Below are positions 3,712 through 26,035 of a stretch of 44,553 nt of DNA, piece after piece. The DNA comes from a virus. The translations under genes were made by a program, and so were the position numbers. The first letter of the stretch is position 1. Every line of letters begins with the position of its first letter. The notes beneath the pieces are model-generated. The model had not been told where the DNA came from, did no database searches, and was given only the letters and a program-made list of their open reading frames with translations. The stretch is taken from the IMG/VR virus record IMGVR_UViG_3300037474_000099. One strand, given 5' to 3'.

Positions 3712-3730
3712 TGTCCTAAGTTTTTAACTA

Positions 3731-4636
3731 TTAAGCTCCAGGAGAACCTACAACACATCTCCAATCAGCAAAGAACGTACGGAAACGTTCGTATGCAGAA
3801 ACGATGATATCTTTGGTTGTCGGATCTTTGAAGGAATCAGTTGTTACGCCCATTCTAGAAGCAACTAACAGACCATTCTCAGCATTTGTAGTAATAAAAA
3901 ATGCATCAGTGTCTGATAAACGTTTCCAAGGAATGATCTTTTTGATAACTGATTGATTATTAATTGCACTGATATCATTGTCAGCAGAACTAACACGATA
4001 TTTAGAATTAACGATACGATCAGCTTCAAAACGAAGTTCTTTAGGAACAACTAAATTCATGGTTTCATAATCAGACAATAAACCGTCCGGATTCATAAAA
4101 CCGTCTACTAAGATAACCATTTGTTCAATAGCATCTTCAGAAAGATCTAAAGTTACTGTATTTGAACTGGTTCCACCAGCTTGAATTGGATGATCAGATG
4201 CACAAAGCACTTTACCATCTGGACCAGTGGTAGCAAATGCAGCGTTTAAAACTGCCGCCATTTGATAATCTTTATTATGAGCTAAAGATTTAGCTTGTTC
4301 TTTACCCATTAAAGGTAAAAGATCTTCATAAAGATTGTCAGCAACTGCTTCCATTGTAATACGAGCTGATTTTTCATAGGTAAATATCGGCCAACGATAT
4401 ACCCAGTTTTGGTCCACGCTATCATAAGAAATAGCGGCACCTTCATTTTTACGGGTAGCTAACCCCATACCTGCCAACTGTACTGCTTCATAAAAGCCTT
4501 TTTCAGTTTTCACTTCTTGGAAGATTTGTGAACCTGGGCCTTTATATGTATCCTTATAATGATGAAGGATCTTATCAATACCGAGTTGTAGTAATCGGGG
4601 CAAATTACCCGTAGTTACACGAGCTGAATTAGCCAT
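3731..4636 (-). CDS. Major capsid protein (HK97-fold type expected)
   Basis: 301 aa, positioned after portal and scaffold. Good codon bias, followed by a terminator, and typical in size and composition. No explicit motif was checked. Confidence 0.7.
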   Translation of the reverse strand: MANSARVTTGNLPRLLQLGIDKILHHYKDTYKGPGSQIFQEVKTEKGFYEAVQLAGMGLATRKNEGAAISYDSVDQNWVYRWPIFTYEKSARITMEAVADNLYEDLLPLMGKEQAKSLAHNKDYQMAAVLNAAFATTGPDGKVLCASDHPIQAGGTSSNTVTLDLSEDAIEQMVILVDGFMNPDGLLSDYETMNLVVPKELRFEADRIVNSKYRVSSADNDISAINNQSVIKKIIPWKRLSDTDAFFITTNAENGLLVASRMGVTTDSFKDPTTKDIIVSAYERFRTFFADWRCVVGSPGA

Positions 4637-4653
4637 TTAAAAATTCCTCTAAA

Positions 4654-5271
4654 TTATACACCAGCTGTACCAGTACCACCGGAACGTTCTGCACTGTTAA
4701 TAGTAACAAGAATTGAAGCGTTAGCTGAAGCAGGAGTGTTATCTGCTCGATCTTCAAAACCAATCATTTTTAACTGTAACGTTGCAGTTGTAGCATGTGT
4801 ACTAGAATCTAGTTGCATAGTTGATAAGCCAGATACAGTGTCAGCGTCAGTAATTGTAGTACCGCCACCATTACCTGTGATGTTAGCATTTTCACCGATT
4901 TCCGCTAAAGCAGTAGTACCATCGGATGTAATAGCATAAACGTCCGTATTATTAGCTGGACGAACCATTACATACATAGTAGTGCTAGCAGGACGATGAG
5001 TTCTATCTAACGACATACCGGTACCTTCGATGAAGTGTTCTAAGAACCCTTCAACAACTCCATAAATTGCGTCACCAGCAGAAACTCGAGCAACTGTCCG
5101 GACAACGGGACCGCTGCCGCTTGAAGTGCTTGAACCTGCTGTTTTAACTGCATCTCCGCGACCAACAATAACTGAGTCTGAAGATGGAATTATGCACAAT
5201 TCAAGATCTTGATCGATCTTTTGCTGGAATAAACGAAGGCCGCCGTTTCTAATTACATTAGGCATTGTCAT
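4654..5271 (-). CDS. head-module protein (possible decoration or cement protein)
   Basis: 205 aa, Gly/Thr/Ser/Ala-rich, directly upstream of the capsid gene. Confidence 0.4.
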   Translation of the reverse strand: MTMPNVIRNGGLRLFQQKIDQDLELCIIPSSDSVIVGRGDAVKTAGSSTSSGSGPVVRTVARVSAGDAIYGVVEGFLEHFIEGTGMSLDRTHRPASTTMYVMVRPANNTDVYAITSDGTTALAEIGENANITGNGGGTTITDADTVSGLSTMQLDSSTHATTATLQLKMIGFEDRADNTPASANASILVTINSAERSGGTGTAGV

Positions 5272-11333: not shown

Positions 11334-11576
11334 TTATCGACCTCTTTTAAAATATAATTCAAATAATCTTTTAATACTATCTTTAATCTCTGTCATATCT
11401 TCTTTGACTGGATCTAATTTATCTGATAGCATCTGTCGTACCTGTGTTTCTGTAACGACAGAATTTAAATCCTGTTCTAATTTTTCTATGCGTGACATGA
11501 TACTCCTCACAAAAAACGCTCCTATGCCTGCTAGTATAGGTATAACTATAGAGGCTATAGTAATGAACATTTCCAT
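11334..11576 (-). CDS. N-terminally anchored membrane protein with coiled coil (lysis accessory or spanin-like?)
   Basis: The first ~25 aa are hydrophobic (FITIASIVIPILAGIGAFFV), followed by a charged helix. Adjacent to the holin-like gene. Confidence 0.45.
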   Translation of the reverse strand: MEMFITIASIVIPILAGIGAFFVRSIMSRIEKLEQDLNSVVTETQVRQMLSDKLDPVKEDMTEIKDSIKRLFELYFKRGR

Positions 11577-11577: not shown

Positions 11578-12006
11578 TTATACCAACTTTTTAGTTATGA
11601 AAGTTTTTAGTACGGATCCTATATTTAATTGTGTCATAATCTTTTCAATAGTTCTGCATGGAATATAACCCATTACACCTACTTTTAAAAGATCTAAAAC
11701 TTCTTGCATCATGGGAGAAAGAGGTTTGTCAAAATTAGGAGGGACGTAACCAAAAAACCAAGATCCAATTATTACCATTAAAAGGACCATTAATACAGGT
11801 CTCCAGGTTCTTTCTAACCAAGAACCTTGAGTCAATATTTGAGAAATAGCATTTGCAGAAGCAGTTACACTTGCAGCATCCGCATCATTTAATTTATTAA
11901 CTGATTCTAAAGCTGATTGAATTGTTTTTGCTTGTTCGCCCTTAAATCCAAATAGGCCTGTGAAGAAAGAAGAAACACCACTGATAAGCAAAGTTAAGAA
12001 AGGCAT
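11578..12006 (-). CDS. GTA-type 3-TM holin-like protein
   Basis: N-terminal GxxGxxxG-rich helix, then the central W.ERTWRPVLMVLLMVIIGSWFF segment characteristic of the 'holin of 3 TMs for gene-transfer release' family (recognised from memory). Confidence 0.55.
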   Translation of the reverse strand: MPFLTLLISGVSSFFTGLFGFKGEQAKTIQSALESVNKLNDADAASVTASANAISQILTQGSWLERTWRPVLMVLLMVIIGSWFFGYVPPNFDKPLSPMMQEVLDLLKVGVMGYIPCRTIEKIMTQLNIGSVLKTFITKKLV

Positions 12007-12031
12007 CTGATTAATTCTTATAATTATACCG

Positions 12032-12059
12032 TTGACATTGCCAGTATATGTGTTAATAT
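12032..12059 (+). promoter_or_regulatory. Near-consensus sigma70 promoter pointing against the late operon
   Basis: TTGACA (12032-12037), 16-nt spacer, TAATAT (12054-12059). Confidence 0.55.
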
Positions 12060-12065
12060 AACTAA

Positions 12066-12222
12066 AATACTAGCTTATTAGAATAAGAGGGTTTATGACC
12101 TAGTGACCCAATACACCGTGATTAGATATTTTCCCGTCTTTATTCAGTATCGTCTCTTAATCATATTCGGGGTGCGGCTGTTGACGTTATCTCTGTATTA
12201 AGTTCTTAGTCGGCGCAGATGC
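12066..12222 (+). ncRNA. Candidate antisense RNA (~155 nt) opposite the leader of the holin-like gene
   Basis: Would start downstream of the 12032 promoter. The stretch is locally GC-richer and lacks ORFs. The hairpin GTCGGCGCAGATGCGGGAC followed by TTT at ~12199-12222 is a possible 3' end. Confidence 0.3.
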
Positions 12223-12245
12223 GGGACTTTAACTGCCGTGAATGT

Positions 12246-12374
12246 CTATTCTTTCATTGCTTCAATAGCAACTCTTACTTTCTCTATCTTATCCTTGATA
12301 ATTGGAACAACTTTAATCGCTACTCCAACTCCTGCGGCAAATCCTATTGAAAATACTCCTAACATTAATAACAT
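12246..12374 (-). CDS. 42-aa single-TM peptide (MLLMLGVFSIGFAAGVGVAIKVVPIIKDKIEKVRVAIEAMKE)
   Basis: My own translation (below the ORF-track cutoff). GGGAG RBS lies 5 nt upstream of the ATG at 12374; TAG at 12248-12246. Gly-zipper TM plus an amphipathic charged tail. Confidence 0.55.
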   Translation of the reverse strand: MLLMLGVFSIGFAAGVGVAIKVVPIIKDKIEKVRVAIEAMKE

Positions 12375-12383: not shown

Positions 12384-12411
12384 CTAAAAATAAGAGCAGT
12401 CAGGCCTGCTC
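12384..12411 (-). terminator. Intrinsic terminator (second one in the late leader)
   Basis: On the minus strand: GAGCAG-gcctga-CTGCTC followed by TTATTTTTA, directly abutting the RBS of the 42-aa ORF. Confidence 0.6.
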
Positions 12412-12523
12412 AGTCCCCTACTTTCGTATTATGAATTTTTTGGTATCAGGTTGTAGGCACCTTGTTCTGCATTGCACAGAAAGACTCTGTATTATATATT
12501 CTAATAGATCAGAGTCTGTAAAG

Positions 12524-12676
12524 CTAATTTAACTGTTTACCACAGTCTAGACATAGTATTAAACCATCATCAGTTGAAAATTCAATCCATGTTCCATCAA
12601 CTACAGCATTTAAAATTTCTTCATGTTTTAGATTATTAAATAACTTAAATTGAATATCTTTATGGCTACAGTTCAT
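12524..12676 (-). CDS. 50-aa protein (MNCSHKDIQFKLFNNLKHEEILNAVVDGTWIEFSTDDGLILCLDCGKQLN)
   Basis: My own translation. ATG at 12676, TAG at 12526-12524. C-terminal CxxC. Confidence 0.45.
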   Translation of the reverse strand: MNCSHKDIQFKLFNNLKHEEILNAVVDGTWIEFSTDDGLILCLDCGKQLN

Positions 12677-12694
12677 TTAATATTACCTAGTAGT

Positions 12695-12730
12695 ATAAAT
12701 AAAAAAGGAACATCCTGTCGCCGTGTTCCT
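12695..12730 (-). terminator. Intrinsic terminator closing a ~110-nt leader RNA
   Basis: On the minus strand: AGGAACA-cggcgacagga-TGTTCCT (7-bp stem, + coordinates 12706-12730) followed by TTTTTTATTTAT. Confidence 0.6.
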
Positions 12731-12812
12731 GTAGCGTATAGCTTCTAGTCCATGACTATTTCATTCTGACAATTACTGCTATATAGTATATTTTAAATAA
12801 ATTTGTACTTAC
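12700..12812 (-). ncRNA. Candidate short terminated leader RNA (6S-RNA-like product of the late promoter)
   Basis: Defined only by the promoter at 12819-12847 and the terminator at 12695-12730. No ORF longer than 2 codons lies inside. Confidence 0.35.
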
Positions 12813-12818
12813 TTATAT

Positions 12819-12847
12819 AGTATAATAGACAAATCAATATTTGTCAA
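12819..12847 (-). promoter_or_regulatory. Near-consensus sigma70 promoter with an embedded palindrome (candidate late promoter)
   Basis: On the minus strand: TTGACA (12847-12842), 17 nt, TATACT (12824-12819). The spacer contains the inverted repeat GACAAAT-attg-ATTTGTC, which overlaps the -35. Confidence 0.6.
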
Positions 12848-12878
12848 GTATTTTATAAATATAATTTATTAGTTTTAT

Positions 12879-13830: not shown

Positions 13831-13878
13831 ACTAACCTATTGATTATATTAACTAACCTATTGATTATATTAACTAAG
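13831..13878. repeat. 21-bp tandem direct repeat x2.3 (iteron-like)
   Basis: ACTAACCTATTGATTATATTA at 13831-13851 and 13852-13872, then a partial ACTAAG. Followed by 2 x GAGTATTAA (about 13891 and 13911). Confidence 0.85.
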
Positions 13879-15201: not shown

Positions 15202-15311
15202 TATCACATGACCTGTTTATTATCCTTAATGTCCTTCCTCTAGATAAACGAAGGCAAGGTATACATAATAAGTATAGCATATAATTAAAATTTGTCAAGA
15301 AGAGAGTGAAT

Positions 15312-15461
15312 ATGAATGGTATACTATTAGCGATAGTAGCATTAATATATGTTTTAGTAGCGATAAATATGCTATTATCTAATCAAATAGGATTAGGTTG
15401 TACATTTATTTGCTATGCGTTATCTAATGTATTTTTATATATAAGTTCTTTAAATATATGA
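15312..15461 (+). CDS. 49-aa two-TM peptide (MNGILLAIVALIYVLVAINMLLSNQIGLGCTFICYALSNVFLYISSLNI)
   Basis: My own translation. AGAGAG RBS-like sequence. Confidence 0.45.
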   Translation: MNGILLAIVALIYVLVAINMLLSNQIGLGCTFICYALSNVFLYISSLNI

Positions 15462-15468
15462 GGTTAAT

Positions 15469-15627
15469 ATGAATAAATTTAAAGCAATATATGACAATAT
15501 GTTAAGTTTCTTACTAGGGTTATTAATGGGATTATTGTTAGCCTTACTGTTAATTTTAAATGATACGTATAATCAAATAGATACGAATATTGATAACTAT
15601 ATGAATTATAATAATAAATATTTTTAA
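15469..15627 (+). CDS. 52-aa single-TM peptide (MNKFKAIYDNMLSFLLGLLMGLLLALLLILND...)
   Basis: My own translation. AGGT RBS. Confidence 0.45.
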   Translation: MNKFKAIYDNMLSFLLGLLMGLLLALLLILNDTYNQIDTNIDNYMNYNNKYF

Positions 15628-15634
15628 AAAAATA

Positions 15635-15662
15635 TTGACACCTTATATAAATTTGATATACT
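15635..15662 (+). promoter_or_regulatory. Early promoter P2
   Basis: tATTGACA: TTGACA (15635-15640), 16 nt, TATACT (15657-15662). Confidence 0.6.
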
Positions 15663-15696
15663 AAAATTGTAAGATAAATAGATATAAGGAGGGTTT

Positions 15697-15831
15697 ATGA
15701 ATACCGAATTATATACAGGAAGAATGGGAGCAGTAGACAAATTAAGAGATAATTTTAAAAAACAATTAGAAAAATTACAAAAAGAGTTAAAAAAACTAGG
15801 TAAAAAAATTGATAATATGAATAAAAATTAA
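15697..15831 (+). CDS. 44-aa basic coiled-coil peptide
   Basis: My own translation: MNTELYTGRMGAVDKLRDNFKKQLEKLQKELKKLGKKIDNMNKN. Strong AAGGAGGG RBS. Confidence 0.55.
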   Translation: MNTELYTGRMGAVDKLRDNFKKQLEKLQKELKKLGKKIDNMNKN

Positions 15832-15858
15832 TATTAATAAATGTACAAGGAGACTGCA

Positions 15859-15993
15859 ATGAAAACAACTATTTTAACTGTTATTGTTTATTTCGTAATA
15901 TCTTTAGTATTGCTTTCACATTCTGTATCTGTAATTGCTAATAGTACAGAATCTCTTAAAAATTGGAATGAATCTGGTAAAACATTAGATTAG
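15859..15993 (+). CDS. 44-aa N-terminally hydrophobic (signal or TM) peptide
   Basis: My own translation: MKTTILTVIVYFVISLVLLSHSVSVIANSTESLKNWNESGKTLD. AAGGAG RBS. Confidence 0.55.
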   Translation: MKTTILTVIVYFVISLVLLSHSVSVIANSTESLKNWNESGKTLD

Positions 15994-16003
15994 AGGTATA
16001 TAT

Positions 16004-16174
16004 ATGAAAACTTTTGAAAGGTTATTTGATGAATTTGACAATAAGATTAATGAATTTAAAAAATTAGTCAATTTTATAGAAAATGAAAATAAACGTTTAA
16101 AATCAGAAATTGAGCAAAAAGAAAAATTATTAAAATCTCAAGGTATTAAAATTACTTATGACTTAATAAAATAA
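16004..16174 (+). CDS. 56-aa coiled-coil peptide
   Basis: My own translation: MKTFERLFDEFDNKINEFKKLVNFIENENKRLKSEIEQKEKLLKSQGIKITYDLIK. GAGG RBS. Confidence 0.5.
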   Translation: MKTFERLFDEFDNKINEFKKLVNFIENENKRLKSEIEQKEKLLKSQGIKITYDLIK

Positions 16175-16189
16175 TAGGAGAATATATTA

Positions 16190-16735
16190 ATGAGAAAACT
16201 TAAAGATATTAGAAGTGACCTAGAGTTACATTATATGCAAGAATCCAGAACTGTGTTTTTTCATGGAGAAGTAGGACAATTTAAATTAGAAGATGCTTTG
16301 AGAAATTTAGATTATCTGGCTAATATAAGTAAGAAACCTATTATTTTAAGAATTTGCTCACCAGGAGGATCTGTAGATTATGGACTAGTGTTATATGATT
16401 ATATTAAAATGTCCAAAGTCCCTATTCATACGCTATGTTCAGGAATGGCAGCTTCAATGGCGGCTATATTATTAGGAAGTGGCAAAAAAGGAAAGCGTAT
16501 GGCTACTAAAAGTAGTCGTATTATGATACACCAACCATCATCAGGTTATATAGGTAAAGCGAGTGATATTGAAATTCATGCAAACGAGACTAAAAGGATT
16601 AGGAACCTTTTAAATACTATAATATCTAAAGATACAGGCCAGCCTTTAAAGAAGGTTGAAAAAGATACCGAATTAGATTTATGGATGACAGCTGAAAATG
16701 CTTTACAATATGGTATTATCGATAAAATTGTATAG
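16190..16735 (+). CDS. clpP: ATP-dependent Clp protease proteolytic subunit ClpP
   Basis: ICSPGGSV, catalytic Ser in GMAASMAA, His in IMIHQPS, Asp in EKDTELDLWMTAENALQYGIIDKIV. Full-length at 181 aa. AGGAG RBS. Confidence 0.9.
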   Translation: MRKLKDIRSDLELHYMQESRTVFFHGEVGQFKLEDALRNLDYLANISKKPIILRICSPGGSVDYGLVLYDYIKMSKVPIHTLCSGMAASMAAILLGSGKKGKRMATKSSRIMIHQPSSGYIGKASDIEIHANETKRIRNLLNTIISKDTGQPLKKVEKDTELDLWMTAENALQYGIIDKIV

Positions 16736-16742
16736 AGGCTAT

Positions 16743-17009
16743 ATGAATAATATATTAAATTTAAATCTATCTAAAGAAACACAAGATAAACTATTTGAAA
16801 TAGGATTAAACTTATTAAGTAAAAACAAATTATTAGGTATAGACTTATTTTATCAATATGAATCTTTTCCTAAATTATCTTTTAAAAAATTAATAATAGC
16901 TGCTACTATATTGTATATACTAAAAAAGGAATTGTCATATTTTCAATCATTTAGATATAAATGTAAGGTATTGATTAATAAAGTTAAAAATATTTTAAAA
17001 AAGTATTGA
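16743..17009 (+). CDS. hypothetical protein (88 aa from MNNILNL; the track start at 16698 lies inside clpP)
   Basis: GAGG RBS before the ATG at 16743. C-terminal hydrophobic segment. Confidence 0.5.
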   Translation: MNNILNLNLSKETQDKLFEIGLNLLSKNKLLGIDLFYQYESFPKLSFKKLIIAATILYILKKELSYFQSFRYKCKVLINKVKNILKKY

Positions 17010-17034
17010 CATATTAATATATAAGGAGGATAAT
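17006..17034 (+). promoter_or_regulatory. Early/middle promoter P3
   Basis: tATTGACA: TTGACA (17006-17011), 17 nt, GATAAT (17029-17034). Confidence 0.5.
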
Positions 17035-17057
17035 TAATATATAGAGGAGCAATTAAC

Positions 17058-17333
17058 ATGTACATAATAGATTTTTTTAGATATAAACTAGATACTAAAA
17101 CGTTTAAGGAAGATAAGGAAGGAATTGAAAGTTGTTATTTTGTAGATTATTATGAACATGTTGGATATGATGATTTAGATACAGTTTTTACGGAAATAAA
17201 AAAGTTTTTAAATAATAGTTATGGATATGTTACAGTTAATAGAGTAAAAATGAGAATAGATAATTTTAAAAAATTTAAAGAAGATATGTTAAAAAATAAA
17301 ATTATTTTATTAAATAATAAGGATAATATTTAA
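17058..17333 (+). CDS. hypothetical protein, tandem paralogue 1 (91 aa)
   Basis: Shares (I/L)(D/N)F(F/Y)RY.L(D/E)...F...(K/R).FL(N/D)N.YG(Y/F)V with the next ORF. Confidence 0.6.
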   Translation: MYIIDFFRYKLDTKTFKEDKEGIESCYFVDYYEHVGYDDLDTVFTEIKKFLNNSYGYVTVNRVKMRIDNFKKFKEDMLKNKIILLNNKDNI

Positions 17334-17353
17334 ACTGTGTTTATAGGTGACGT

Positions 17354-17650
17354 ATGATTATTTTAAATTTTTATAGATATGAATTAGAACAAAAACCATT
17401 TATCGGTAGATGTAAATCAAGTTTTAGATATATGTCTTATAAAAAAATTCTTGATCATATAATTACAGTAGAAACTTTATCTATCGCTAAAGATAAGATT
17501 AGAGATTTTTTAGATAATTATTACGGATTTGTTGACATAATTCCATTTAGAATGACAGTTAATAATAAAAAAGATTTTTTACAAAAGATGGATGATAGAG
17601 GAATTCATGCTGTTTATTTTACTAAAGTTAAGATGGGAGTTGATTTATGA
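17354..17650 (+). CDS. hypothetical protein, tandem paralogue 2 (98 aa)
   Basis: See 17058..17333. Confidence 0.6.
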   Translation: MIILNFYRYELEQKPFIGRCKSSFRYMSYKKILDHIITVETLSIAKDKIRDFLDNYYGFVDIIPFRMTVNNKKDFLQKMDDRGIHAVYFTKVKMGVDL

Positions 17651-17784
17651 GATGCAAAGCCTGTAATAATATATTGGAATCTAAAGATTTTTTAATAGAT
17701 AAATTAGGAGAATTATGTGTTAAGTGCGTAATATGGGTAGAAGACGATGTTAAATTAAAAAAAGATTGGGATGATGATAAATGA
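17647..17784 (+). CDS. 45-aa CxxC...CxxC zinc-ribbon-like peptide
   Basis: My own translation: MRCKACNNILESKDFLIDKLGELCVKCVIWVEDDVKLKKDWDDDK. ATGA overlaps at both ends. Confidence 0.5.
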   Translation: MRCKACNNILESKDFLIDKLGELCVKCVIWVEDDVKLKKDWDDDK

Positions 17785-18461
17785 GATATAAATGTGAAGA
17801 CTGCGGAGCTAACAGAGGATTAGCTAAATATTCTTCCGGAGATTGGTGTTTTTCTTGTAATAAATATTTTAAAAATAAAAAATTAATCGATTTATCATTT
17901 AATAAAAAACTAGATGAAGTTAGTTTATCAGATAATTTTCCTATTAATGCTATTAACTGGCTTGCTCAATATCAGATATTTAAAAATGATTTTAAAAACA
18001 ATAACTTAAAATGGTGCAATAATTATAAAAGAATATGTTTTTGTTTTGGTAAAGACTTGACAAATTATTATTTACGGAGTATAATACCTAATGAAAGAAA
18101 TAAATGGATTTTAAAATCCGAAAGAAAAGAATTTTATACTAAACAAGGAGTTAGTACTTCAAATTTAATTATTGTAGAGGATCCATTAAGCGCTATTAAA
18201 GTTTTTTCTTCTAAATTATGTGATGTAGTTGCTTTGGGAGGTACTAATTTTAATTCTTCTATATTAGTATCTATTTTTTTAAAATACGACAATTTGGTAC
18301 TTTGGTTAGATGGTGATTCTCCTGGTAGAATAGCTTCTAATAAATTTAGACAGAAATTTAAGCTTTTAAAACCTATTAAAATAATAAATACAAAAAAAGA
18401 CCCTAAAGACCATTCTTATGAACAAATTGAGGAAATATTAAATGAAAAAATATGTTCATAA
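17781..18461 (+). CDS. DNA primase (zinc ribbon + TOPRIM)
   Basis: CEDCGA..x14..CFSC zinc ribbon. TOPRIM residues IIVEDPLSAIKV and LWLDGDSPGR. Confidence 0.75.
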   Translation: MRYKCEDCGANRGLAKYSSGDWCFSCNKYFKNKKLIDLSFNKKLDEVSLSDNFPINAINWLAQYQIFKNDFKNNNLKWCNNYKRICFCFGKDLTNYYLRSIIPNERNKWILKSERKEFYTKQGVSTSNLIIVEDPLSAIKVFSSKLCDVVALGGTNFNSSILVSIFLKYDNLVLWLDGDSPGRIASNKFRQKFKLLKPIKIINTKKDPKDHSYEQIEEILNEKICS

Positions 18462-18497
18462 ATGTCCTTATATAAATGAAACGAATTTGGGACTAAT

Positions 18498-19694
18498 ATG
18501 ATTGAATTAACTTTACTTAAAGCTTTATCTAATAAAGAAAGTTTTAATAAATATAAAAATTTATTAAATCCTAAAACTCTATCTCAACATTCTTTAATGT
18601 TATTAAAAGACTATGAAGTATATTTTCACAAATATTCTCATGATAGGATAGATTGGTCTTTATTTCCTACTTATTTTTTTGAAATAAGGCATCCTTACAT
18701 GGATGAAAAATCTATATTAGAATATAAAGAAATTATAAGTAATATATCTACATTACATGTAAATGGAGAAATTAAAGATATTTATAAAGGATTTGAACAA
18801 CAGGAATTTTATTTAGAATTGCAAAGATTATTAGATAACAATATAGATGTCAAAGAATTAAAAATAAAATTAGAAGATTTTTCAAAAACAATTGAAGAAA
18901 AAACAGAACTAGAAGTAGAAATGGATTTAAAAGAATCTTTAAACTATACAAATCGATCAGAAGGATTAGTTTGGAGATGTGAAAAACTTCGAAATCATTT
19001 CCAGGGTGGATTAATTAAAGGTGATTTTGGAATAGTAGCGGGATATGTAGATACAGGTAAATCTAGTTTTATAGCTTCAGAAGTATCTTATATGGCTACT
19101 CAATTAAAAGATGAAGAATATATATTATGGTGTAGTAATGAAGGTGATTGGAAATCATTATTGCCCAGATTATATTGCGCGACGTTAAATTGTACAGATA
19201 AAGATTTAAGGCAATATTTAGATAAAGCTGAAGAAAAGTATTTAAATTTAATGAAAGGAAATAAAAACAGAGTAATTATTAAGGATATACAAGGATGGTC
19301 ATATGTAGAATTAGAAAATTTGATTAAATCAAATCCTCCTAAATTATTAGTCATAGATTTATTAGATAATGTATCTGGATTTAACAAAGAATCTGAATGG
19401 AGTCGGTATGGTAAACTGTATCAATGGGCACGAGAAATAGCTACACATTATTGTCCAGTATTAGGAGTATCGCAGTTAAATGGAGATGGAGAAAATAAAG
19501 AATATCCAAGTATGTCACGTTTAAGAGGTTCAAGAGTAGATAAACAAGGTGCCGCTACCTTTCAATTGCATATAGGATCTTTAGAAGGCAATAATGACAT
19601 TAGATATTTAAGTATGCCAAAAAATAAAATAAACAGTAATAAATCTTGGAGAGTTCAAGTAAAATTTGATGCTAATAGATCGAGATTTATATGA
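18498..19694 (+). CDS. Replicative DnaB/T7 gp4-type helicase
   Basis: Walker A GYVDTGKSSF, Walker B LLVIDLLDNV, and the SQLN motif. Confidence 0.8.
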   Translation: MIELTLLKALSNKESFNKYKNLLNPKTLSQHSLMLLKDYEVYFHKYSHDRIDWSLFPTYFFEIRHPYMDEKSILEYKEIISNISTLHVNGEIKDIYKGFEQQEFYLELQRLLDNNIDVKELKIKLEDFSKTIEEKTELEVEMDLKESLNYTNRSEGLVWRCEKLRNHFQGGLIKGDFGIVAGYVDTGKSSFIASEVSYMATQLKDEEYILWCSNEGDWKSLLPRLYCATLNCTDKDLRQYLDKAEEKYLNLMKGNKNRVIIKDIQGWSYVELENLIKSNPPKLLVIDLLDNVSGFNKESEWSRYGKLYQWAREIATHYCPVLGVSQLNGDGENKEYPSMSRLRGSRVDKQGAATFQLHIGSLEGNNDIRYLSMPKNKINSNKSWRVQVKFDANRSRFI

Positions 19695-19891
19695 TATATA
19701 AAGTACAAAGTAAAATGCAAAGTATATTTAACATTTATCATTTTGTTAGTCACAAAATTGAAGGAACTTATAAAAATAAAGCAGATGCTATAGGTCACCA
19801 ATACGTTTTATTTGCTGATCATTTAGCAAAATTAATATTGAAACAAGAAACTGAACTGAAGTTATTTGAAATAATAGAAGAGATTGAATAA
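19691..19891 (+). CDS. hypothetical protein (66 aa)
   Basis: ORF track. ATGA overlap with the helicase gene. Confidence 0.5.
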   Translation: MIYKVQSKMQSIFNIYHFVSHKIEGTYKNKADAIGHQYVLFADHLAKLILKQETELKLFEIIEEIE

Positions 19892-20333
19892 TGGGATCAT
19901 TATGTCTATAACACGTAAAAAAGCAGAGCAAATTGTAAATGAAAGTTTAGAATTGTGCAAACAATTGTTAAAATTAACAAAATATAAAATAACTGTTCAT
20001 ATATTGCATACTAAATCAGTATTCTTAAGAAAAAATGGTGCTAAACCTCAGGGAGAGATGGCAAGTTGTTATGGGTCAGAATATAGTAAATCAGCTGATA
20101 TTATAATACATTATGATAAACATCCTAATGATAGAGAAGTTCTTAGTTCTTTAATTCATGAATTATTACATTTAAAATTTGCTAAATTATCGGAATTAGT
20201 TACGTTGAAACAAAGAAAAGCTCATAATATAGAAGAGAATTTAGTAAGAGATTTTGAAGAATTGATAATGCAATTTTTAGACAATAGTCATAAACTTGTT
20301 AAACGGATTAAAAAATTGAGCAAAGAGAGGTAA
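19884..20333 (+). CDS. HExxH motif protein (putative zinc metallopeptidase; start may be 19902)
   Basis: The only recognisable feature is SLIHELLHLKF (HExxH). Confidence 0.35.
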   Translation: MNNGIIMSITRKKAEQIVNESLELCKQLLKLTKYKITVHILHTKSVFLRKNGAKPQGEMASCYGSEYSKSADIIIHYDKHPNDREVLSSLIHELLHLKFAKLSELVTLKQRKAHNIEENLVRDFEELIMQFLDNSHKLVKRIKKLSKER

Positions 20334-20336
20334 ATT

Positions 20337-20573
20337 ATGAAATTAAATGCAAAAGCTATATTACAAGCAGAATCGGTAAATGTAAATTTACAAACTGATG
20401 CTGTAGAACTTTTATTGGATGATGGACAAAGTTTAACATTAAGTTATAATGATTTGACAATAATGGAAGCTGTATTGCTAAAATTAAAATTTGCAGATCC
20501 AGTTATATCTCCTGGAAAGTCTACAGGAGATATATTTAAAGCTTTGAGTTTAATGGAACAGGAAACTAAATAA
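20337..20573 (+). CDS. hypothetical protein (78 aa)
   Basis: ORF track. Confidence 0.5.
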   Translation: MKLNAKAILQAESVNVNLQTDAVELLLDDGQSLTLSYNDLTIMEAVLLKLKFADPVISPGKSTGDIFKALSLMEQETK

Positions 20574-21250
20574 TGTATTTAGTAGTTGATTTAGAAACAA
20601 CTTGTAAAGAACGTTATAAAAGAAAAGGTAATCCTTTTTATAACAATATATTATGCTACGGTTTTAAGTATCAAAATAAGGAAGCTTTTGGCAAACCTTC
20701 AGACAATGTCCCTGAAGGATGGTTAAATGGAGTTACAGACCTTATAGGACATAATATAAAATATGATTTGTTATATCTATGGAGAAATAGAGAGCTTCAA
20801 GAGGCTTTTAAAAGGGGTTTAAATATATGGGATACGCAGTTAGCAGAGTATATATTATCAGGGCAACAGCATAAATATCCAGCATTGAGAGATATAGCAG
20901 TCAATAAATATGGTTGTAAAGAAAGAGTTAAGCATATTGAACAAGGTTTTAAAAATGGATTACTAGATACATCTGAAATACCAATGCCGTTGTTATTAGA
21001 AGATGTTACTAATGATGTCATTGATACCGAAGTAATAGCTTTAGAACAGTTAAGAAAATCTAAAGAGAATGGAATGTATAATTTAATTAAATCCCAAATG
21101 AATTCTTTACTAGCGACAACCGAAATGGAATATAATGGAATGTTTATTAATAAAAGTATATTAAAAAATAGAGAAACTGAAATAAAAAACCAGTTAGAAA
21201 TTTTATATAGTGAATTAAATCAAATAACAGGAAAATATTGGAATGATTGA
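20573..21250 (+). CDS. DNA polymerase A, 3'-5' exonuclease-domain ORF
   Basis: Exo I VVDLETT, Exo II LIGHNIKYDLLYL. Overlaps the polymerase ORF by 8 nt (ATGATTGA). Confidence 0.8.
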   Translation: MYLVVDLETTCKERYKRKGNPFYNNILCYGFKYQNKEAFGKPSDNVPEGWLNGVTDLIGHNIKYDLLYLWRNRELQEAFKRGLNIWDTQLAEYILSGQQHKYPALRDIAVNKYGCKERVKHIEQGFKNGLLDTSEIPMPLLLEDVTNDVIDTEVIALEQLRKSKENGMYNLIKSQMNSLLATTEMEYNGMFINKSILKNRETEIKNQLEILYSELNQITGKYWND

Positions 21251-22523
21251 TTTTAATCCTTCATCTACTAAACATTTATCTACTCTTCTTTTTGGAGGAG
21301 AAGTTAAATATGTAGAAAAAATCCCTAATGGAATATTTAAATCTGGAGAGAGAAAAGGAGAAATAAAATACAAAAATGAAGATAAAATTAAAAAATTTAA
21401 TGGGTTAGTTAAACCCTTAAAAGAATGGAAATCGGAAGCGGGTAATATAAGTACAGGAGATACAGTATTACAAATATTAGCTAAAAGACAAGATAAAGAC
21501 GCAGGAAAAATAGCTAAAATATTATTAGAAATAAGAAAATTAGAAAAAGAATTAAATACTTATTATAACGCTATTGGTGAATTGATATATGATTTTGATA
21601 GTACGGTAAAAGGCCAACTATGTCATTGTGGATACGATAAAGGATCCGAATTTGGAGGTGGTACATCTACTGGACGACTATCAAGCAGACATCCTAATCT
21701 ACAAAATTTTCCTAGAGCGGCTGATAGTCAAGTTAGAGAATTTTTTTCTAGTAGATATGGCGATAATGGAATTATTATAGAATGCGATTACAAGCAATTA
21801 GAAGTAGTAGTATTTGCTTTTTTAACCCAAGATGTTCAATTAATTGAAGATATAAATAATGGTATTGATATTCATAGAATATTAGCTAGCAGGTTATATA
21901 GAACCCCCGAAGCTTTAATTACTAATGAACAACGTCAACAGACTAAATTTAGTACATTTCATGTTATTTATGGAGGAGGATATAAATCCTTAGCTAAAAG
22001 AGAGAATATAGATGAAGAAATAGCAAAGAAATTTATTGATATTTTTTATGAAAGATATCCTCAAGCTAAATTATGGCAGGATAATTTAGTTAGACAAGTT
22101 AATAATACAAGAGATTTTGATAAAAAACTAGCTTATTTTCAATCAGTTACAGGTCGAATATATTATTTTCCTTTAATGGATCAGCCATATAAAAATGGAA
22201 ATAATGAAATATGGGTTTACCCTCCTAATATAAAAAACTATCCAGTTCAAGGACTTGCAACTGCGGATATAGTATTAATAATGCTAGGTAAATTATGGAG
22301 GCAAGCTATTGAAAACAGAGATAAATTTTTACTTATAAATACAGTTCACGATTCAGTAGTTATAGATTGTAAAAAAGAATTTTTGGATTTTACTTGCAAT
22401 TTAGTAAAAAATGAGTTAGAATTAGGATATGAGATTTTAAAAAATTTATTTAATATAGATTTTAACGTACCCTTGAAAATAGACATAAAGACAGGAAAAG
22501 ATTGGAGGAAATGCGGACTATGA
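21243..22523 (+). CDS. DNA polymerase A, polymerase-domain ORF
   Basis: Motif A CDYKQLEVVVFA, motif B RQQTKFSTFHVIYGGG, motif C NTVHDSVVID, and GRLSSRHPNLQNFPR. Confidence 0.85.
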   Translation: MIDFNPSSTKHLSTLLFGGEVKYVEKIPNGIFKSGERKGEIKYKNEDKIKKFNGLVKPLKEWKSEAGNISTGDTVLQILAKRQDKDAGKIAKILLEIRKLEKELNTYYNAIGELIYDFDSTVKGQLCHCGYDKGSEFGGGTSTGRLSSRHPNLQNFPRAADSQVREFFSSRYGDNGIIIECDYKQLEVVVFAFLTQDVQLIEDINNGIDIHRILASRLYRTPEALITNEQRQQTKFSTFHVIYGGGYKSLAKRENIDEEIAKKFIDIFYERYPQAKLWQDNLVRQVNNTRDFDKKLAYFQSVTGRIYYFPLMDQPYKNGNNEIWVYPPNIKNYPVQGLATADIVLIMLGKLWRQAIENRDKFLLINTVHDSVVIDCKKEFLDFTCNLVKNELELGYEILKNLFNIDFNVPLKIDIKTGKDWRKCGL

Positions 22524-22759
22524 AAAAAGATTTTAAAAAATCTAAAGAAGCTAAATTTATTAAAAATACTTTAAAAAAATCTAAGTTAAAAAAATCTAAC
22601 GTTAATAAATTTAAAAATGAACGTAAAAAAATATTAAATAAGTTGAAAGTAGATCTAGACAGGGTTAATCAAGGTGAAAAGTTTTTACTAAAATTAGCAG
22701 CTGTATTTTTACTATTTACTGTAGTAAGTATGTTTTTAATTTCGTTAATGCATTTTTAA
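22502..22759 (+). CDS. Lys-rich protein with a C-terminal TM anchor (85 aa)
   Basis: ORF track. The true start may be the internal MKKDFKK. Confidence 0.45.
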   Translation: MEEMRTMKKDFKKSKEAKFIKNTLKKSKLKKSNVNKFKNERKKILNKLKVDLDRVNQGEKFLLKLAAVFLLFTVVSMFLISLMHF

Positions 22760-22770
22760 TCGAGGCTTAT

Positions 22771-22905
22771 ATGAGAATCATGTTCAAAACCGAACGATAT
22801 TGCCATAAATGCCATAAAATTCGCAATGTTAACGAATTTAATAAAATTACTAAAAATTTTAGAATTTCAAGTGAATGTAAACAACATAGAGGTAAACAAA
22901 AATGA
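22771..22905 (+). CDS. 44-aa CxxC basic peptide
   Basis: My own translation: MRIMFKTERYCHKCHKIRNVNEFNKITKNFRISSECKQHRGKQK. GAGG RBS. Its stop overlaps the SSB ATG (ATGA). Confidence 0.5.
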   Translation: MRIMFKTERYCHKCHKIRNVNEFNKITKNFRISSECKQHRGKQK

Positions 22906-23477
22906 CACAATTTACAGGAGTGGTAAAAAAAGTAGTTTCTAAAGAAATTGATATTGCCAACAAGCCATTTATAAAACACGAAATCTCTATAGATTCAGAT
23001 GGCGAGACGAAAACAGTGTTAAAATTTACAAAACCAGAAACGACATTTGCTTTGGAAAAAGGGACTAAAGTTCAAGTAACAGGAGAAGAACAGGAAGATA
23101 AATATGGTAATACCACAATTAAAGTAAACAGTAAGCCTGAATCATTTGTATTGCTGGATCAAAACAACAAACCTAAAGATTCAGGAAAAACATGGACAAA
23201 TACTACTTCTACTACTGGTACCAAAGATGTGGCATTACGACCGACTTTCAATACATTTAATGGAGATGGTGCAAAACGTGGTAATGCATTAACTAATGCT
23301 GTAACTATGTTAATTCATAATAAAAACGGAAGTCAAATTACTATAAAAGATGCAGAAAAATTATTAGAATTAGCTAGAATGGTATTTAAAGTATCCACTG
23401 ATCTAGAAAATCCAGATACTACTTCTTCCACTAGTACAACAAAGGATTCTAATAATGAAGTTTCTCCATTCGATTAA
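22902..23477 (+). CDS. Single-stranded DNA-binding protein (putative)
   Basis: OB-like N-terminal half, a low-complexity T/S linker and an acidic/aromatic C-terminal tip (NNEVSPFD). Sits in the replication module. Confidence 0.5.
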   Translation: MTQFTGVVKKVVSKEIDIANKPFIKHEISIDSDGETKTVLKFTKPETTFALEKGTKVQVTGEEQEDKYGNTTIKVNSKPESFVLLDQNNKPKDSGKTWTNTTSTTGTKDVALRPTFNTFNGDGAKRGNALTNAVTMLIHNKNGSQITIKDAEKLLELARMVFKVSTDLENPDTTSSTSTTKDSNNEVSPFD

Positions 23478-24639
23478 CGGTATTTTAGGCAAGACTTTAG
23501 GTATAAATGAATTATTAGAGATTGGAGTTGTAGATCCAGTCTCTATAGTTCAAGATTTAGATAAGTATATTATTGGCCAAGACGCAGCTAAAAAATCTAT
23601 AGCGTTGATGCTTTTAAATAGATCCTTGTTAATGCTAAAAAAATTTGGAGTATTGTCCCCAGATTTAAAATTAACTAAGAATAATGTACTTATGTTAGGT
23701 CCAACAGGATCGGGTAAAACTGCTTTAATTAAAGCAGTAGCTGAGATATCTGATATACCTATTTATATATATGACATTACATCTACTACTGGAGCTGGAT
23801 ATTATGGATCTGATTTATTGGATATGTTAAATGAACATATAAATTATCAGTATGATTATTATAGTGAATTGTATCAAGCTCAAACGTTATCTGAAGAAGA
23901 TTTTTACAATTTTTCTTTTGACGTATTTTGTAAAATTGTAGAAAATAGTATTATATATATAGATGAAATAGATAAAATAAAAATTACTAGGGACAATTCT
24001 AAAAAAGATGGTTGGGGATCAATGCTCCAAGTTGAATTATTAAAAATGATAGAAGGACATAATGTAAATCTATTAAATGATAAAACTAGACAAACAGAGA
24101 AAACCTTAAATAAAGCTCAAATATCAAATCTTAATACTGAAAATATTTTCTTTATAGCTGGAGGAGCTTTTAGCGGTTTAGATGATATTATTAAACATAG
24201 ATTAAAAATAAATAATACTGTTGGATTTTTAACAGATTATGAACAAAAGCTTAAAATAGAAAAAAATGCCTTAGATTTTTTTAAAACTGAGGATTTAATT
24301 GAATATGGTTTCATGCCCGAGTTTATCGGTAGATTTCCAATAAAGACCGTACTCCAGTCTCATACTGTTGATACACTGAAAAAGATAATGACAAAAGCCC
24401 ATGGCTCCGTATATTTAGAATATATAGATTTATTTAAGGTTTTTGGCGTTAAATTAAAATTTAGTGATGAGGCGTTAACAGAAATAGCCAATGCAGCTCT
24501 TAAGGTAAATTTAGGAGCTAGAGCTTTAAAAAGTATTTTTAATGAGATTTTAGAAGATAAAGTTTTTAACATATTTCATGACACGCCGGGAACTATGATA
24601 ATTAGTAAAACTGAGGTAAAAAAACGATTAAAATTATAG
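23455..24639 (+). CDS. clpX: ClpX-like AAA+ unfoldase lacking the N-terminal zinc-binding domain
   Basis: LDKYIIGQDAAKK, Walker A GPTGSGKT, pore-1 loop GAGYYGSD, Walker B IIYIDEIDKI, IGF-loop equivalent TVGF, EDLIEYGFMPEFIGRFP, sensor-2 GARALKSI. Confidence 0.85.
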   Translation: MKFLHSINGILGKTLGINELLEIGVVDPVSIVQDLDKYIIGQDAAKKSIALMLLNRSLLMLKKFGVLSPDLKLTKNNVLMLGPTGSGKTALIKAVAEISDIPIYIYDITSTTGAGYYGSDLLDMLNEHINYQYDYYSELYQAQTLSEEDFYNFSFDVFCKIVENSIIYIDEIDKIKITRDNSKKDGWGSMLQVELLKMIEGHNVNLLNDKTRQTEKTLNKAQISNLNTENIFFIAGGAFSGLDDIIKHRLKINNTVGFLTDYEQKLKIEKNALDFFKTEDLIEYGFMPEFIGRFPIKTVLQSHTVDTLKKIMTKAHGSVYLEYIDLFKVFGVKLKFSDEALTEIANAALKVNLGARALKSIFNEILEDKVFNIFHDTPGTMIISKTEVKKRLKL

Positions 24640-24645
24640 GAGTAA

Positions 24646-25449
24646 ATGATGTTATTTGATTGGGCTATAATTGATATGGATCCGTTAGTATATAGATGTG
24701 GTTTTTCTATAGAAAAAATAGATAGACAAACTGGTATTTTGACAGTTGAGCCCGCACACCATGCTTTTTATAATATAAATAGTATGATGAAAAAAATTCT
24801 AAAGCATACTAAAAATAATCAATATAAAGGTTGGTTAACTTCAAATGATAAAAGTAACTTTAGATTTGATATATTTCCAGCGTATAAATCTAATAGAAAA
24901 GATGCTCGTAAACCTATATTTTATAATGAAATTAGAGATTTTCTTGTTAATAAATGGAAAGCTGAGGTAGTATTTGGTCAAGAAGCTGACGATCAGTGTA
25001 CAATAGATCATTGCGAATTAAATAAATTAGGATTTGACCCTGAAAATTTAAATTCAATAGTATGTTCTTTTGATAAAGATTTTAATAATGTTCCGGGATG
25101 GCATTATAACTTTGTTAAAGATGAAGTATATTATATTGATGAAATTCAAGCATATAGAAATTTTTATCTTCAGATATTAACTGGAGATACTAGTGATGGT
25201 ATACCCCGAATTAAAAAAGGATGGCTAAAGAAAAAAACCGAAGAATTATTATCAAAAGCCTTGACAATAGAAGAAATGGAAGATATAATACATAAAGAAA
25301 TAGAAAAACATTCAACAGAAGATTTGAATTCATTAACAATTTTTAAAGAGAGAGGTCAGCTTGTATGGCTACGTCGAGAAGCAGAGGAATTCTGGATCCC
25401 GAAAAAATGTCGAGAAAAGCAAAATTTAACTGGTTTAGAGATCAGTTAG
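24646..25449 (+). CDS. 5'-3' exonuclease / flap endonuclease
   Basis: PAYKSNRK, GQEADDQ, SFDKDF, ILTGDTSDGIPRIKKG (H3TH). Confidence 0.8.
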   Translation: MMLFDWAIIDMDPLVYRCGFSIEKIDRQTGILTVEPAHHAFYNINSMMKKILKHTKNNQYKGWLTSNDKSNFRFDIFPAYKSNRKDARKPIFYNEIRDFLVNKWKAEVVFGQEADDQCTIDHCELNKLGFDPENLNSIVCSFDKDFNNVPGWHYNFVKDEVYYIDEIQAYRNFYLQILTGDTSDGIPRIKKGWLKKKTEELLSKALTIEEMEDIIHKEIEKHSTEDLNSLTIFKERGQLVWLRREAEEFWIPKKCREKQNLTGLEIS

Positions 25450-25589
25450 ATAGTTTTTCTACTGAGGAATTAACTCAATTATCTGATGAAATTGAATTTG
25501 AATTGTGGGAAAGAGCTAGTTTGGAAGATTATCATAAGTTTTATGGTGAAGATCAATTTGATCTAAATGAAGATAGTGACACAGAATAA
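25407..25589 (+). CDS. 60-aa acidic protein (MSRKAKFNWFRDQL...); overlaps the FEN 3' end
   Basis: Track ORF 25365..25589. The internal ATG at 25407 sits right after an A6 run. It is in the -1 frame relative to FEN. Confidence 0.45.
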   Translation: MSRKAKFNWFRDQLDSFSTEELTQLSDEIEFELWERASLEDYHKFYGEDQFDLNEDSDTE

Positions 25590-25604
25590 AAGTTAGGATA
25601 TAAT

Positions 25605-25979
25605 ATGGTAAAAAACGATGCAATTATTTTTAAAAATGTAGATCATGGAGTTTTAGATAAAAAAGATTTAATTAAAAGTAAAGCATTGTTTAATAAATAT
25701 GGCATTACTTTAAAACAAAAACAACAAATGATCGAACAACAAGATGGACGTTGTTGGATTTGTAAACAAGTACCCAAATCAGGTATTCTATGTGTCGATC
25801 ATAGACATGTTAAAGGTTATAAAAAATTATCAGCAGAAGAGAGAGCTAAAGAAGTTAGAGCGTTACTTTGTTTTATGTGTAATACTGGATTACATGGAAT
25901 CGAGAAACGAAAAAATGCTCGTTATTTACTTGAAAGATATAATGAATATTTTAAAGTATTTAAGATAAAAGGCGACTAA
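25605..25979 (+). CDS. Endonuclease VII-family (Holliday-junction resolvase / HNH-like)
   Basis: QDGRCWIC....CVDHRH....LLCFMCNTGL, the Endonuclease_7 signature. Confidence 0.8.
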   Translation: MVKNDAIIFKNVDHGVLDKKDLIKSKALFNKYGITLKQKQQMIEQQDGRCWICKQVPKSGILCVDHRHVKGYKKLSAEERAKEVRALLCFMCNTGLHGIEKRKNARYLLERYNEYFKVFKIKGD

Positions 25980-26007
25980 GTTATTGATTTTAAATATTAT
26001 TTAATTA

Positions 26008-26035
26008 TTGAATATTGTTAAATATGTGTTATAAT
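26008..26035 (+). promoter_or_regulatory. Extended -10 promoter of the SbmA-like operon
   Basis: TTGAAT (26008-26013), 16 nt, TGtTATAAT (26027-26035). Confidence 0.55.

Follow-up and report, generated by a model that had tools for sequence, protein, structure and literature searches.

This report concerns the leader of the late operon in the viral genome IMGVR_UViG_3300037474_000099 (IMG/VR), the whole stretch of which (44,553 nucleotides) is referred to below as the window. The leader comprises ~806 nt, about 65% of it non-coding, between a transcription start predicted near 12812 and the holin gene; it follows a consensus promoter and contains two predicted terminators, two tiny open reading frames (ORFs) and three conserved RNA modules, designated A, B and C. 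All leader coordinates given here are on the minus strand. From this arrangement, the leader is predicted to be the regulatory head of a single ~25-kb late operon for lysis, packaging and virion formation, a putative terminator-gated operon with novel leader RNAs that corresponds in outline to a lambdoid late gate. The late genes would probably require terminator read-through by a mechanism not yet described. It is tentatively proposed, at rather less than even confidence, that the gate is relieved through the RNA elements of the leader, in a manner resembling nut or put sites, and not through a Q-type promoter-proximal device.

Genome organization and available relatives

The two ends of the window overlap by 42 nt (1-42 = 44512-44553), which indicates a complete circular assembly of 44,511 bp with a GC content of ~30%. 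Early genes run rightward from ~15,300 to 31,922 and include ClpP, primase, DnaB helicase, DNA polymerase A, a ClpX-like ATPase, exonucleases, endonuclease VII and endolysin. The rest of the genome lies on the minus strand, where a few small leftward ORFs at 15,298-12,879 are followed by one unbroken late arm, extending from 12812 to 1 and, across the circular junction, from 44511 to 32098 (~25.2 kb in total). The holin gene (11578..12006, minus strand; PHROG 3427, 2e-11) is the first large gene of this arm, followed by genes for an 80-amino-acid (aa) protein, the small terminase, the large terminase, the portal (SU10_portal match) and the virion proteins (capsid, tail). A 428-codon minus-strand ORF runs across the junction (658->1 / 44511->43883) and had been split or omitted by the ORF lister. 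Processive antitermination is common in very long operons (PMC8191782, PMC10325885).

This lineage is thinly sampled. A blastn search of 50,697 phage records found no DNA-level relative among cultured phages, and the large terminase is at most 40% identical to those of known phages. A large-terminase scan of viral and metagenome contigs gave one close relative only; terminase scans and a holin search together brought the number to two, namely L001 (holin 82% and large terminase 86% identical) and L128, a 2.8-kb contig whose holin is 93% identical. More distant relatives, with holins 56-68% identical, are L124, L125, L126, L127, L136 and L137. Exact-motif scans of viral and genome collections returned L001 only; further hits in L129 (inside a tape-measure gene) and L130-L135 (seed only) were discarded as chance matches. 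L001 repeats the layout of the window, with a promoter, terminator 1, a 48-aa ORF, stem-loops, terminator 2, a 47-aa membrane peptide, 380 nt of non-coding DNA and the holin gene.

Predicted late promoter

A sigma70-type promoter occupies 12819..12847, with a -35 element TTGACA (12847-12842), a 17-nt spacer and a -10 element TATACT (12824-12819). An earlier reading of the DNA, made from the sequence alone, had described this promoter as near-perfect, and it does match the consensus at 11 of 12 positions, is unique in the window and is kept in L001 (2034-2061, TACTTGACAAATA...TATACT), where the -35 context is identical. When TATACT is accepted as a local -10, it is one of five perfect genome sites for TTGACA/TATA(A/C)T; sites scoring at least 11/12 number 14 in the genome, compared with 6.05 +/- 2.3 in Markov simulations. 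Since the extended motif CTTGACAAAT...TATACT is common to this promoter and the divergent early promoters at 15298(-) and 15635(+), it should be readable by unmodified host polymerase, and, sharing its host sigma70 class with the early promoters, it would presumably be active from the start of infection. It is also the only strong sense promoter heading the late arm.

The operator-like palindrome GACAAAT/ATTTGTC that had been noted over the -35 exists in the window but is absent from the L001 promoter. A -10-like TATACT at +23 to +28 is likewise not conserved in L001, and AT-rich sequence yields such matches by chance. A weak promoter (GCGACA-18-TATACT) overlapping terminator 1 was rejected, as its spacing differs in L001.

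Predicted terminators within the leader

Terminator 1 (T1; 12695..12730) consists of a hairpin at 12730-12706, a U-run at 12706-12701 and AUUUAU. Its stem AGGAACA/UGUUCCU (12730-12724 with 12712-12706) encloses an 11-nt loop and leads into U6AUUU; the folding energy is -8.4 kcal/mol (z -2.2), and a simple terminator scan skipped it solely through its loop of more than 8 nt. In L001 the corresponding element, at the same position, is AGGAACU/AGUUCCU followed by U5AUUAUUU, so that an A-U pair is swapped for U-A, a compensatory change. Terminator 2 (T2; 12384..12411), which was found by the scan, has the stem GAGCAG/CUGCUC with loop GCCUGA (12411-12394), followed by UUAUUUUU (-10.4 kcal/mol, z -2.3), and abuts the GGGAG ribosome-binding site and the ATG (12374) of a 42-aa peptide. 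Its L001 counterpart has an unrelated stem, UGGCAAC/GUUGCCA, with UUUUAAAU as a weaker U-run (-9.6 kcal/mol); in L128 a GGGCAG/CUGCCC stem without a U-run of its own is nested in GUAGG...CCUAC plus UUAUUUU (-22.4 kcal/mol). Two more terminator-like hairpins occur in L001 (2447, 3095), whose leader may thus contain up to four.

At the level of sequence, T1 and T2 both have the composition of intrinsic terminators, a GC-containing hairpin plus a U-run on the sense strand of non-coding DNA, and the ~110-nt terminated leader RNA proposed in the sequence-only reading stands for the window and L001; in L128, on the other hand, neither the U-run nor a nearby promoter is present. The number of such hairpins alone is unexceptional in this AT-rich genome and, on the window alone, could be due to chance. 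What gives T1 and T2 weight is that their positions are kept in L001, where T1 has changed in a compensatory way and T2 has a wholly different stem. Moreover, because the T2 stems differ across the three genomes while a hairpin plus U-run is always retained, this pattern indicates selection for termination itself.

The short contig L128 separates the parts of this region that are constant from those that are not. The first helix of module A there contains the end of an upstream ORF, and the 120 nt available upstream contain no promoter. The T1 hairpin is retained with one G.U pair, but ACUUCUUCAC replaces the U-run, and in the absence of the 50-aa ORF, module A runs directly into module B. Because the hairpin persists here without the U-run, a nearby promoter or the 50-aa ORF, what has been called terminator 1 is primarily a conserved RNA hairpin. 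For the same reason, modules A and B can be regarded as the constant, selected parts of the leader, lying at a variable distance from the promoter, whereas the ~112-nt terminated RNA would be dispensable and not a fixed part of the device.

Conserved RNA modules A, B and C

The sequence-only reading had seen the leader as a promoter-terminator gate with stacked stem-loops. These elements are all present, and the stem-loops (AGACUCUG/CAGAGUCU, UCUGU/GCAGA and AGGU/ACCU) belong to conserved, covarying modules with invariant loops; a third module, C, of 239 nt, had been missed. The cores of the module blocks are 81-89% identical, in comparison with 79.6% for coding DNA, and their flanks are unalignable. 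Read on the late-sense strand, the wobble pairs in the modules are without exception G.U and never A.C, from which it follows that the structure under selection is that of the late-sense RNA.

Module A (12706..12783, 78 nt) has a mean column identity of 89% among the window, L001 and L128; it extends from about +29 to about +107 in the first two and lies farther from the promoter in L128. Helix A1 pairs UAUAGC (12783-12778) with GCUAUA (12742-12737) and encloses inner helices GUC/GAC and UGA/UCA; the second hairpin, A2, is the T1 hairpin and has the invariant loop CGGCGACAGGA. A pseudoknot between UUGUC and GACAG is possible in this model. The fold is reproduced by RNAalifold. In the alignment, 96% of cells are paired, with one both-sided change and one G.U, a count that is not significant on its own. 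The A2 loop of the window (12718-12710) reads ACAGGAUGU, which resembles the core of a CsrA/RsmA-binding site. A second ACAGGA occurs in the 5' stem of A2, and the GGA of the loop is AGA in L128. An 8-codon ORF starting in the A2 loop was considered and rejected, as L001 has no ATG there. Searches for trans targets of module A in the phage genome gave none better than those for shuffled RNA.

Module B (12412..12523) comprises 17 pairs, of which 96.1% are paired and six are changed on both sides; none of 500 shuffles reached six both-sided changes, and slid controls were 27-48% paired. Its first stem-loop, B1, has a lower stem (12517-12510 with 12489-12482), a 3-nt bulge AUC and an invariant upper stem UAUUA/UAAUA, the top ~20 nt being invariant. 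B2 is a 5-bp stem (12480-12476 with 12470-12466) with the invariant loop GCAAU, and B3 is formed by AGGU/ACCU (12462-12459 with 12451-12448) or, alternatively, by CCUAC (12457-12453) pairing with GUAGG (12421-12417), in a region where AAGUAGGGGAYUG is invariant. In L128 the invariant GUAGG has two possible CCUAC partners: pairing with the upstream one closes module B, and pairing with the downstream one creates the base of the U-run terminator. RNAalifold agrees with the module B fold, and the single-sequence z score is -1.9.

Module C (12007..12245) fills the space between the membrane peptide and the holin gene, which measures 239 nt in the window, 380 nt in L001 and 279 nt in L128. A long-range helix joins CGGC (12238-12235) to GCCG (12178-12175) and is CGCC/GGCG in L001 and L128; inside it, AGUU (12234-12231) pairs with AACU (12204-12201) around a variable, fully covarying hairpin (12228-12208). 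Two further helices are GCACC (12175-12171) with GGUGU (12117-12113) and GGGU (12109-12106) with ACCC (12092-12089), and the 3' end carries a conserved UAUAAU..UAUAAGAAUUAAUCAG just before the holin AUG. The core is 87% identical to L001, and in the 5' domain all 12 pairs are kept (100% paired), with five both-sided changes that were matched in 0 of 500 shuffles.

The comparison with relatives that the sequence-only reading had suggested therefore bore out covariation in module B and in the 5' domain of module C, but not in module A, where the count falls short of significance. Covariance models of module A (R1) and module B (R2) each recovered three copies only, those in the window, L001 and L128, with none in 26 related loci, and Rfam gave no match anywhere in the window, the modules included, at gathering or permissive thresholds. 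The invariant loops suggest a specific partner.

Structured RNA also occurs in other parts of this genome. The leftward early units generally have structured untranslated regions (UTRs) of 300-350 nt, and one hairpin at ~14556-14541 on the minus strand (GCUUGC-UUAG-GCAAGC) compares with GCAACC-UUAG-GGUUGC in L001 (~949-964), the stem being compensatory and the loop invariant. A long GC-rich hairpin with compensatory changes and a weak U-run directly follows the major capsid gene (~3722-3682, minus strand; L001 ~11374-11420); within the late operon it probably serves for partial termination or for mRNA stabilisation.

Leaders of more distant relatives

The same gate logic recurs with non-homologous leaders in L125 and L137. 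L137 has a ~170-nt leader without ORFs between a consensus promoter (4757-4785, 11/12) and a U6 terminator of -19.9 kcal/mol; the holin ATG lies about 35 nt (37 by coordinates) beyond the terminator. In L125 a consensus promoter at 4420-4448 precedes terminators of -11.9 and -20.4 kcal/mol, the latter just before the holin gene. Its leader also contains a DUF3800-VIII RNA (Rfam; 4694-4757, 52.5 bits against a gathering threshold of 40.2) with a U-run at its end, located ~270 nt after the promoter and ahead of small ORFs that include an FmdB-like ORF of 66 aa. L125 (5790-5960) and L137 (4800-4966) share a common leader RNA with six compensatory pairs, in which a hairpin with apical UUAGCCAYUGGC serves as a U-run terminator in L137 and not in L125, the same pattern as that of A2.

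In L137, 1.29 kb before the holin gene (3714-5000) is without called genes; two consensus promoters, a tRNA (4549-4619, Rfam 56.4 bits) and two terminators of -20 kcal/mol lie in this stretch. ARAGORN detected no tRNA in the window, L001, L002 or L124-L128.

Start region of the holin gene

A TATAAT at 12023..12028 on the minus strand, with neither a -35 element nor a TG extension, lies 16 nt before the holin ATG. The string TATAAT-AAGAAT(T/A)AAT precedes this ATG in the window and L001 and also in L125 and L137 with their otherwise unrelated leaders; L128 has AATAAT at the TATAAT position; the holin gene lacks a Shine-Dalgarno sequence in all five. The full string before the holin gene (window 12022-12007, minus strand, and relatives) reads (TATAAT)AAGAAT(T/A)AATCA. 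This TATAAT may be either a rival late promoter or part of a conserved translation-initiation region of the holin gene. The motif shows no enrichment in other places, and TATAAGAATTAAT was dropped as a possible repeated late-promoter motif, with 18 matches against 17.6 expected.

Small open reading frames and genes around the promoter

Two tiny ORFs lie within the leader, and their order ahead of the holin, terminase and portal genes is as originally described. The first (12524..12676, 50 aa) is present in the window and L001 and absent in L128; its residues C3, H5, C42 and C45 are conserved, and its product is probably a zinc ribbon. The 48-aa homolog in L001 is 44% identical with all Cys and His residues invariant, and only two clusters of this protein were found among 5.8 billion proteins. 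The second (12246..12374, 42 aa) encodes a single-pass membrane peptide that is 52% identical in L128; the 47-aa counterpart in L001, at the same position, aligns at only 23% identity, and neither phmmer nor a profile search picked it up as a homolog. Homolog searches with the two peptides yielded no further family members, and the 50-aa protein had no Pfam, PHROG or PDB match. AlphaFold without an alignment gave a mean predicted local distance difference test (pLDDT) score of 51 for the 50-aa protein, which is unusable, and 54 for p89, a small early protein described below.

Upstream of the promoter, where the sequence-only reading had looked for an antiterminator in the position of Q, the window has genes for a 163-aa protein and a 61-aa FmdB zinc ribbon. 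The latter assignment was confirmed (PF09723, 1.8e-12); the "C1q-like" label of the 163-aa protein was not, with no Pfam, PHROG or PDB match. This slot is occupied by an unrelated 80-aa ORF in L001 and by another ORF in L128, and because it is not conserved, the genes in it are poor antiterminator candidates. The only conserved small proteins of the early leftward arm are p89 (14943-14674) and p49 (14321-14172, Cys/His-bearing), both of which are found in L001; they may be named, speculatively, as candidate antitermination partners. PDB sequence searches with the 163-aa, 89-aa and 50-aa proteins (p163, p89, p50) returned nothing.

Several other features of this region and of the early arms deserve mention. 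A non-coding block at 13734-13620 (minus strand; L001 1569-1684, 78.6% identity) contains a direct repeat GGATTCT x2 together with CCTACCCGGAGGG, AAGTTACAT and CACTATACTTA, the last of which shares TATACTTAnTA with promoters at 15277 and 14358; this block, which precedes the variable gene slot, may act as a regulated promoter. In the leftward early arm, a non-coding gap of 350 nt contains 2.2 copies of a perfect 21-nt tandem repeat (13831-13877, ACTAACCTATTGATTATATTA), which could represent iterons or a binding site. In the rightward early arm, ClpP, a ClpX-like AAA+ ATPase, an SbmA/BacA-like membrane protein and a protein with a dATP/dGTP diphosphohydrolase N-terminal domain (16190-16735, 23455-24639, 26751-27584 and 29214-29789, respectively) form a gene set that is unusual for a 44-kb phage, and the endolysin gene (31401-31922) lies 20 kb away from the holin gene.

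Proposed mechanism and alternative explanations

When ~50 ORFs of the complete genome, including part of those in the late arm, were scanned against Pfam and PHROG, no Q, N, sigma factor or RNA polymerase emerged, in agreement with the earlier statement that no Q- or N-like antiterminator is recognisable. The lambdoid logic proposed at that time holds with regard to the promoter, the terminators and the single late arm, but not with regard to a Q-type device near the promoter. RNA-triggered processive antitermination offers the best fit, given several terminators, a 25-kb operon and RNA elements whose distance from the promoter varies. Most transcripts made early in infection would end in the leader, as the ~112-nt RNA or as a longer RNA ending at T2, and the late genes would be switched on once RNA polymerase has been made terminator-resistant. 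The trigger would operate at the RNA level, with modules A and/or B acting on the polymerase that made them, either alone (put-like) or together with a small phage protein (nut/N-like or conAn-like), and loading of a Q-like protein at the promoter would not be involved. Control of holin translation would probably be added by module C and the start region without a Shine-Dalgarno sequence. The freely varying T2 stems fit a read-through that is independent of terminator sequence. A more specific version, in which the lineage, lacking a polymerase, sigma factor or known regulator of its own, times its late programme by processive antitermination that is homologous to no known system, with A/B RNA (its loops invariant, some of its hairpins doubling as terminators) acting on host polymerase with or without a tiny zinc-binding phage protein, is put forward as a doubtful extension.

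Several observations weigh against relief of the gate by leader RNA. The transcription start, the 3' ends and the read-through are all predictions from sequence, and no candidate protein or contact on RNA polymerase has been identified. With -8 to -10 kcal/mol, T1 and T2 are hairpins of no more than moderate strength, and sites of this type are common in an AT-rich genome. Modules A-C occur in three genomes only, so that the covariation derives from few events; module A is too invariant for a covariation test, and A and C score no better than shuffles when folded as single sequences. Conserved hairpins and structured 5' UTRs are also found in early leftward units and after the capsid gene, so the leader hairpins could be general stability or processing elements. 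In addition, the -35-less TATAAT before the holin gene, with terminators upstream of it in relatives, could be a real late promoter.

Some of these points are shared with an account in which no dedicated antiterminator exists and T1 and T2 are leaky attenuators that only lower the flow from a constitutive promoter, the timing being set by template copy number after replication; modules A-C would then be mRNA stabilisers, processing sites or translational operators, for example of the membrane peptide or the holin. This account seems unlikely, if worth keeping in view. Besides the moderate terminators and the hairpins elsewhere in the genome, it draws support from the conserved holin start region without a Shine-Dalgarno sequence and from the Pfam/PHROG scans in which no regulator was found. 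However, mere stabilisers need no invariant loops of 5 to 20 nt, and the -20 kcal/mol U-run terminators before the holin gene in L125 and L137 would starve a 25-kb operon unless they were relieved. Those same terminators bear on a further alternative, which is rated as quite improbable: that the late operon is transcribed from the -35-less promoter at 12028-12023 with the aid of an activator or a modified RNA polymerase, and that the promoter at 12847 serves a small unit (the RNA of module A and the 50-aa and 42-aa ORFs) ending before the holin gene. The conserved motif directly follows a terminator in L001, L125 and L137, and one such promoter would suffice for a single late operon. On the other side, the TATAAT is accompanied by no conserved upstream activator site, in addition to lacking a -35 and a TG extension; its 5' UTR would be only ~7-9 nt long without a Shine-Dalgarno sequence; the AATAAT of L128 departs from the motif, which is equally well explained as a translation-initiation region; and the consensus promoter of L137 would be left to produce only a ~170-nt RNA without an ORF.

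Alternatives that place the activity in a stand-alone RNA are distinctly improbable. Module A with T1 could be a trans-acting small RNA, host-directed or anti-defence, since it has the appearance of an abundant, highly conserved ~112-nt terminated RNA behind a consensus promoter, and its A2 loop ACAGGAUGU resembles a CsrA site; against this, no target in the phage genome exceeded the shuffled RNA, and L128 both lacks the U-run that would release the RNA and changes GGA to AGA. If A and B were instead a ligand-sensing riboswitch, the two alternative CCUAC partners of GUAGG in L128 would make a possible switch, but neither the T2 stem of the window nor that of L001 has anything in common with module B, and no Rfam family matches. 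Because these stems vary freely beside a conserved B, a switch based on competing helices is unlikely in the window and L001. A Q-like mechanism, in which an unrecognised protein binds promoter DNA, loads onto sigma-paused polymerase and makes it terminator-resistant, would account for the constitutive promoter with its short terminated leader in the window and L001; the TATACT at +23 to +28 in the window could be its pause element, and the small proteins p49 and p89 are available as candidates. It is nevertheless highly improbable: no Q family was matched, the genes that directly precede the promoter lack conservation, neither the promoter palindrome nor the +23 element is kept in L001, and module A of L128 lies more than 120 nt from any promoter. 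It is this variable distance between element and promoter that disfavours a Q/qut-type mechanism in particular.

To our knowledge, processive antitermination exists in very few forms (N, Q, put, EAR, conAn and the RfaH/LoaP proteins). The present genome provides a clean case, being complete at 44.5 kb, dependent on host RNA polymerase and equipped with a single 25-kb late operon and no recognisable regulator. Should the leader consist only of leaky attenuators and stabilising hairpins, it would still be a well-defined late-operon leader for annotation.

Comparison with known systems

The leader resembles the lambda PR'/qut/tR' system with Q in its constitutive sigma70 promoter, its short, intrinsically terminated leader and the subsequent arrangement of holin, terminase and virion genes in one very long operon. 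It differs in the absence of a Q-family match, in the variable upstream slot, in the presence of several terminators and tiny ORFs in an ~800-nt leader, and in that what is conserved is a set of RNA hairpins lying, as L128 shows, at no fixed distance from the promoter. With lambda N/nut it has in common the B2 element, a covarying 5-bp stem with an invariant pentaloop that is boxB-sized and located in the leader before the terminators; unlike boxB, however, the loop GCAAU is not GNRA-like, and no arginine-rich N-like protein was found. The sole candidate for a boxA (CGCUCUUA-like), UGCUCUUAU, lies inside T2 of the window and was rejected as not conserved, being absent in L001 and L128.

Large structured leader or intra-operon RNAs that allow polymerase to pass several terminators in a very long operon are also known from conAn of pLS20 and EAR of the Bacillus eps operon. 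In conAn, the RNA element works together with a small protein (PMC8191782). Those systems belong to conjugative plasmids and a cellular operon, and no partner protein has been identified here. Closer in form are putL and putR of HK022, ~70-80 nt long, with two stem-loops after a strong promoter and before terminators; the 78-nt module A is put-like in size and shape. In both cases no protein factor is recognisable and the position relative to the promoter varies: putL is close to its promoter and putR ~270 nt away, a variability also seen for nut sites (PMC9378689). By contrast, put serves early operons, and A2 carries a U-run in two of the three genomes. A further hallmark of put RNA is that it acts on RNA polymerase without a protein factor, by way of the beta' zinc-binding domain.

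The DUF3800-VIII RNA (RF03075) gave no match in the window, L001 or L128, and its member in the L125 late leader, which ends in a U-run, resembles A2 in being a conserved hairpin that doubles as a terminator. It is an Rfam RNA motif without an assigned function (PMC5737381). The fact that distant relatives swap the leader sequence and keep the logic suggests a wider class of late-operon leader RNAs, and such a class could give the DUF3800-VIII motif family a function.

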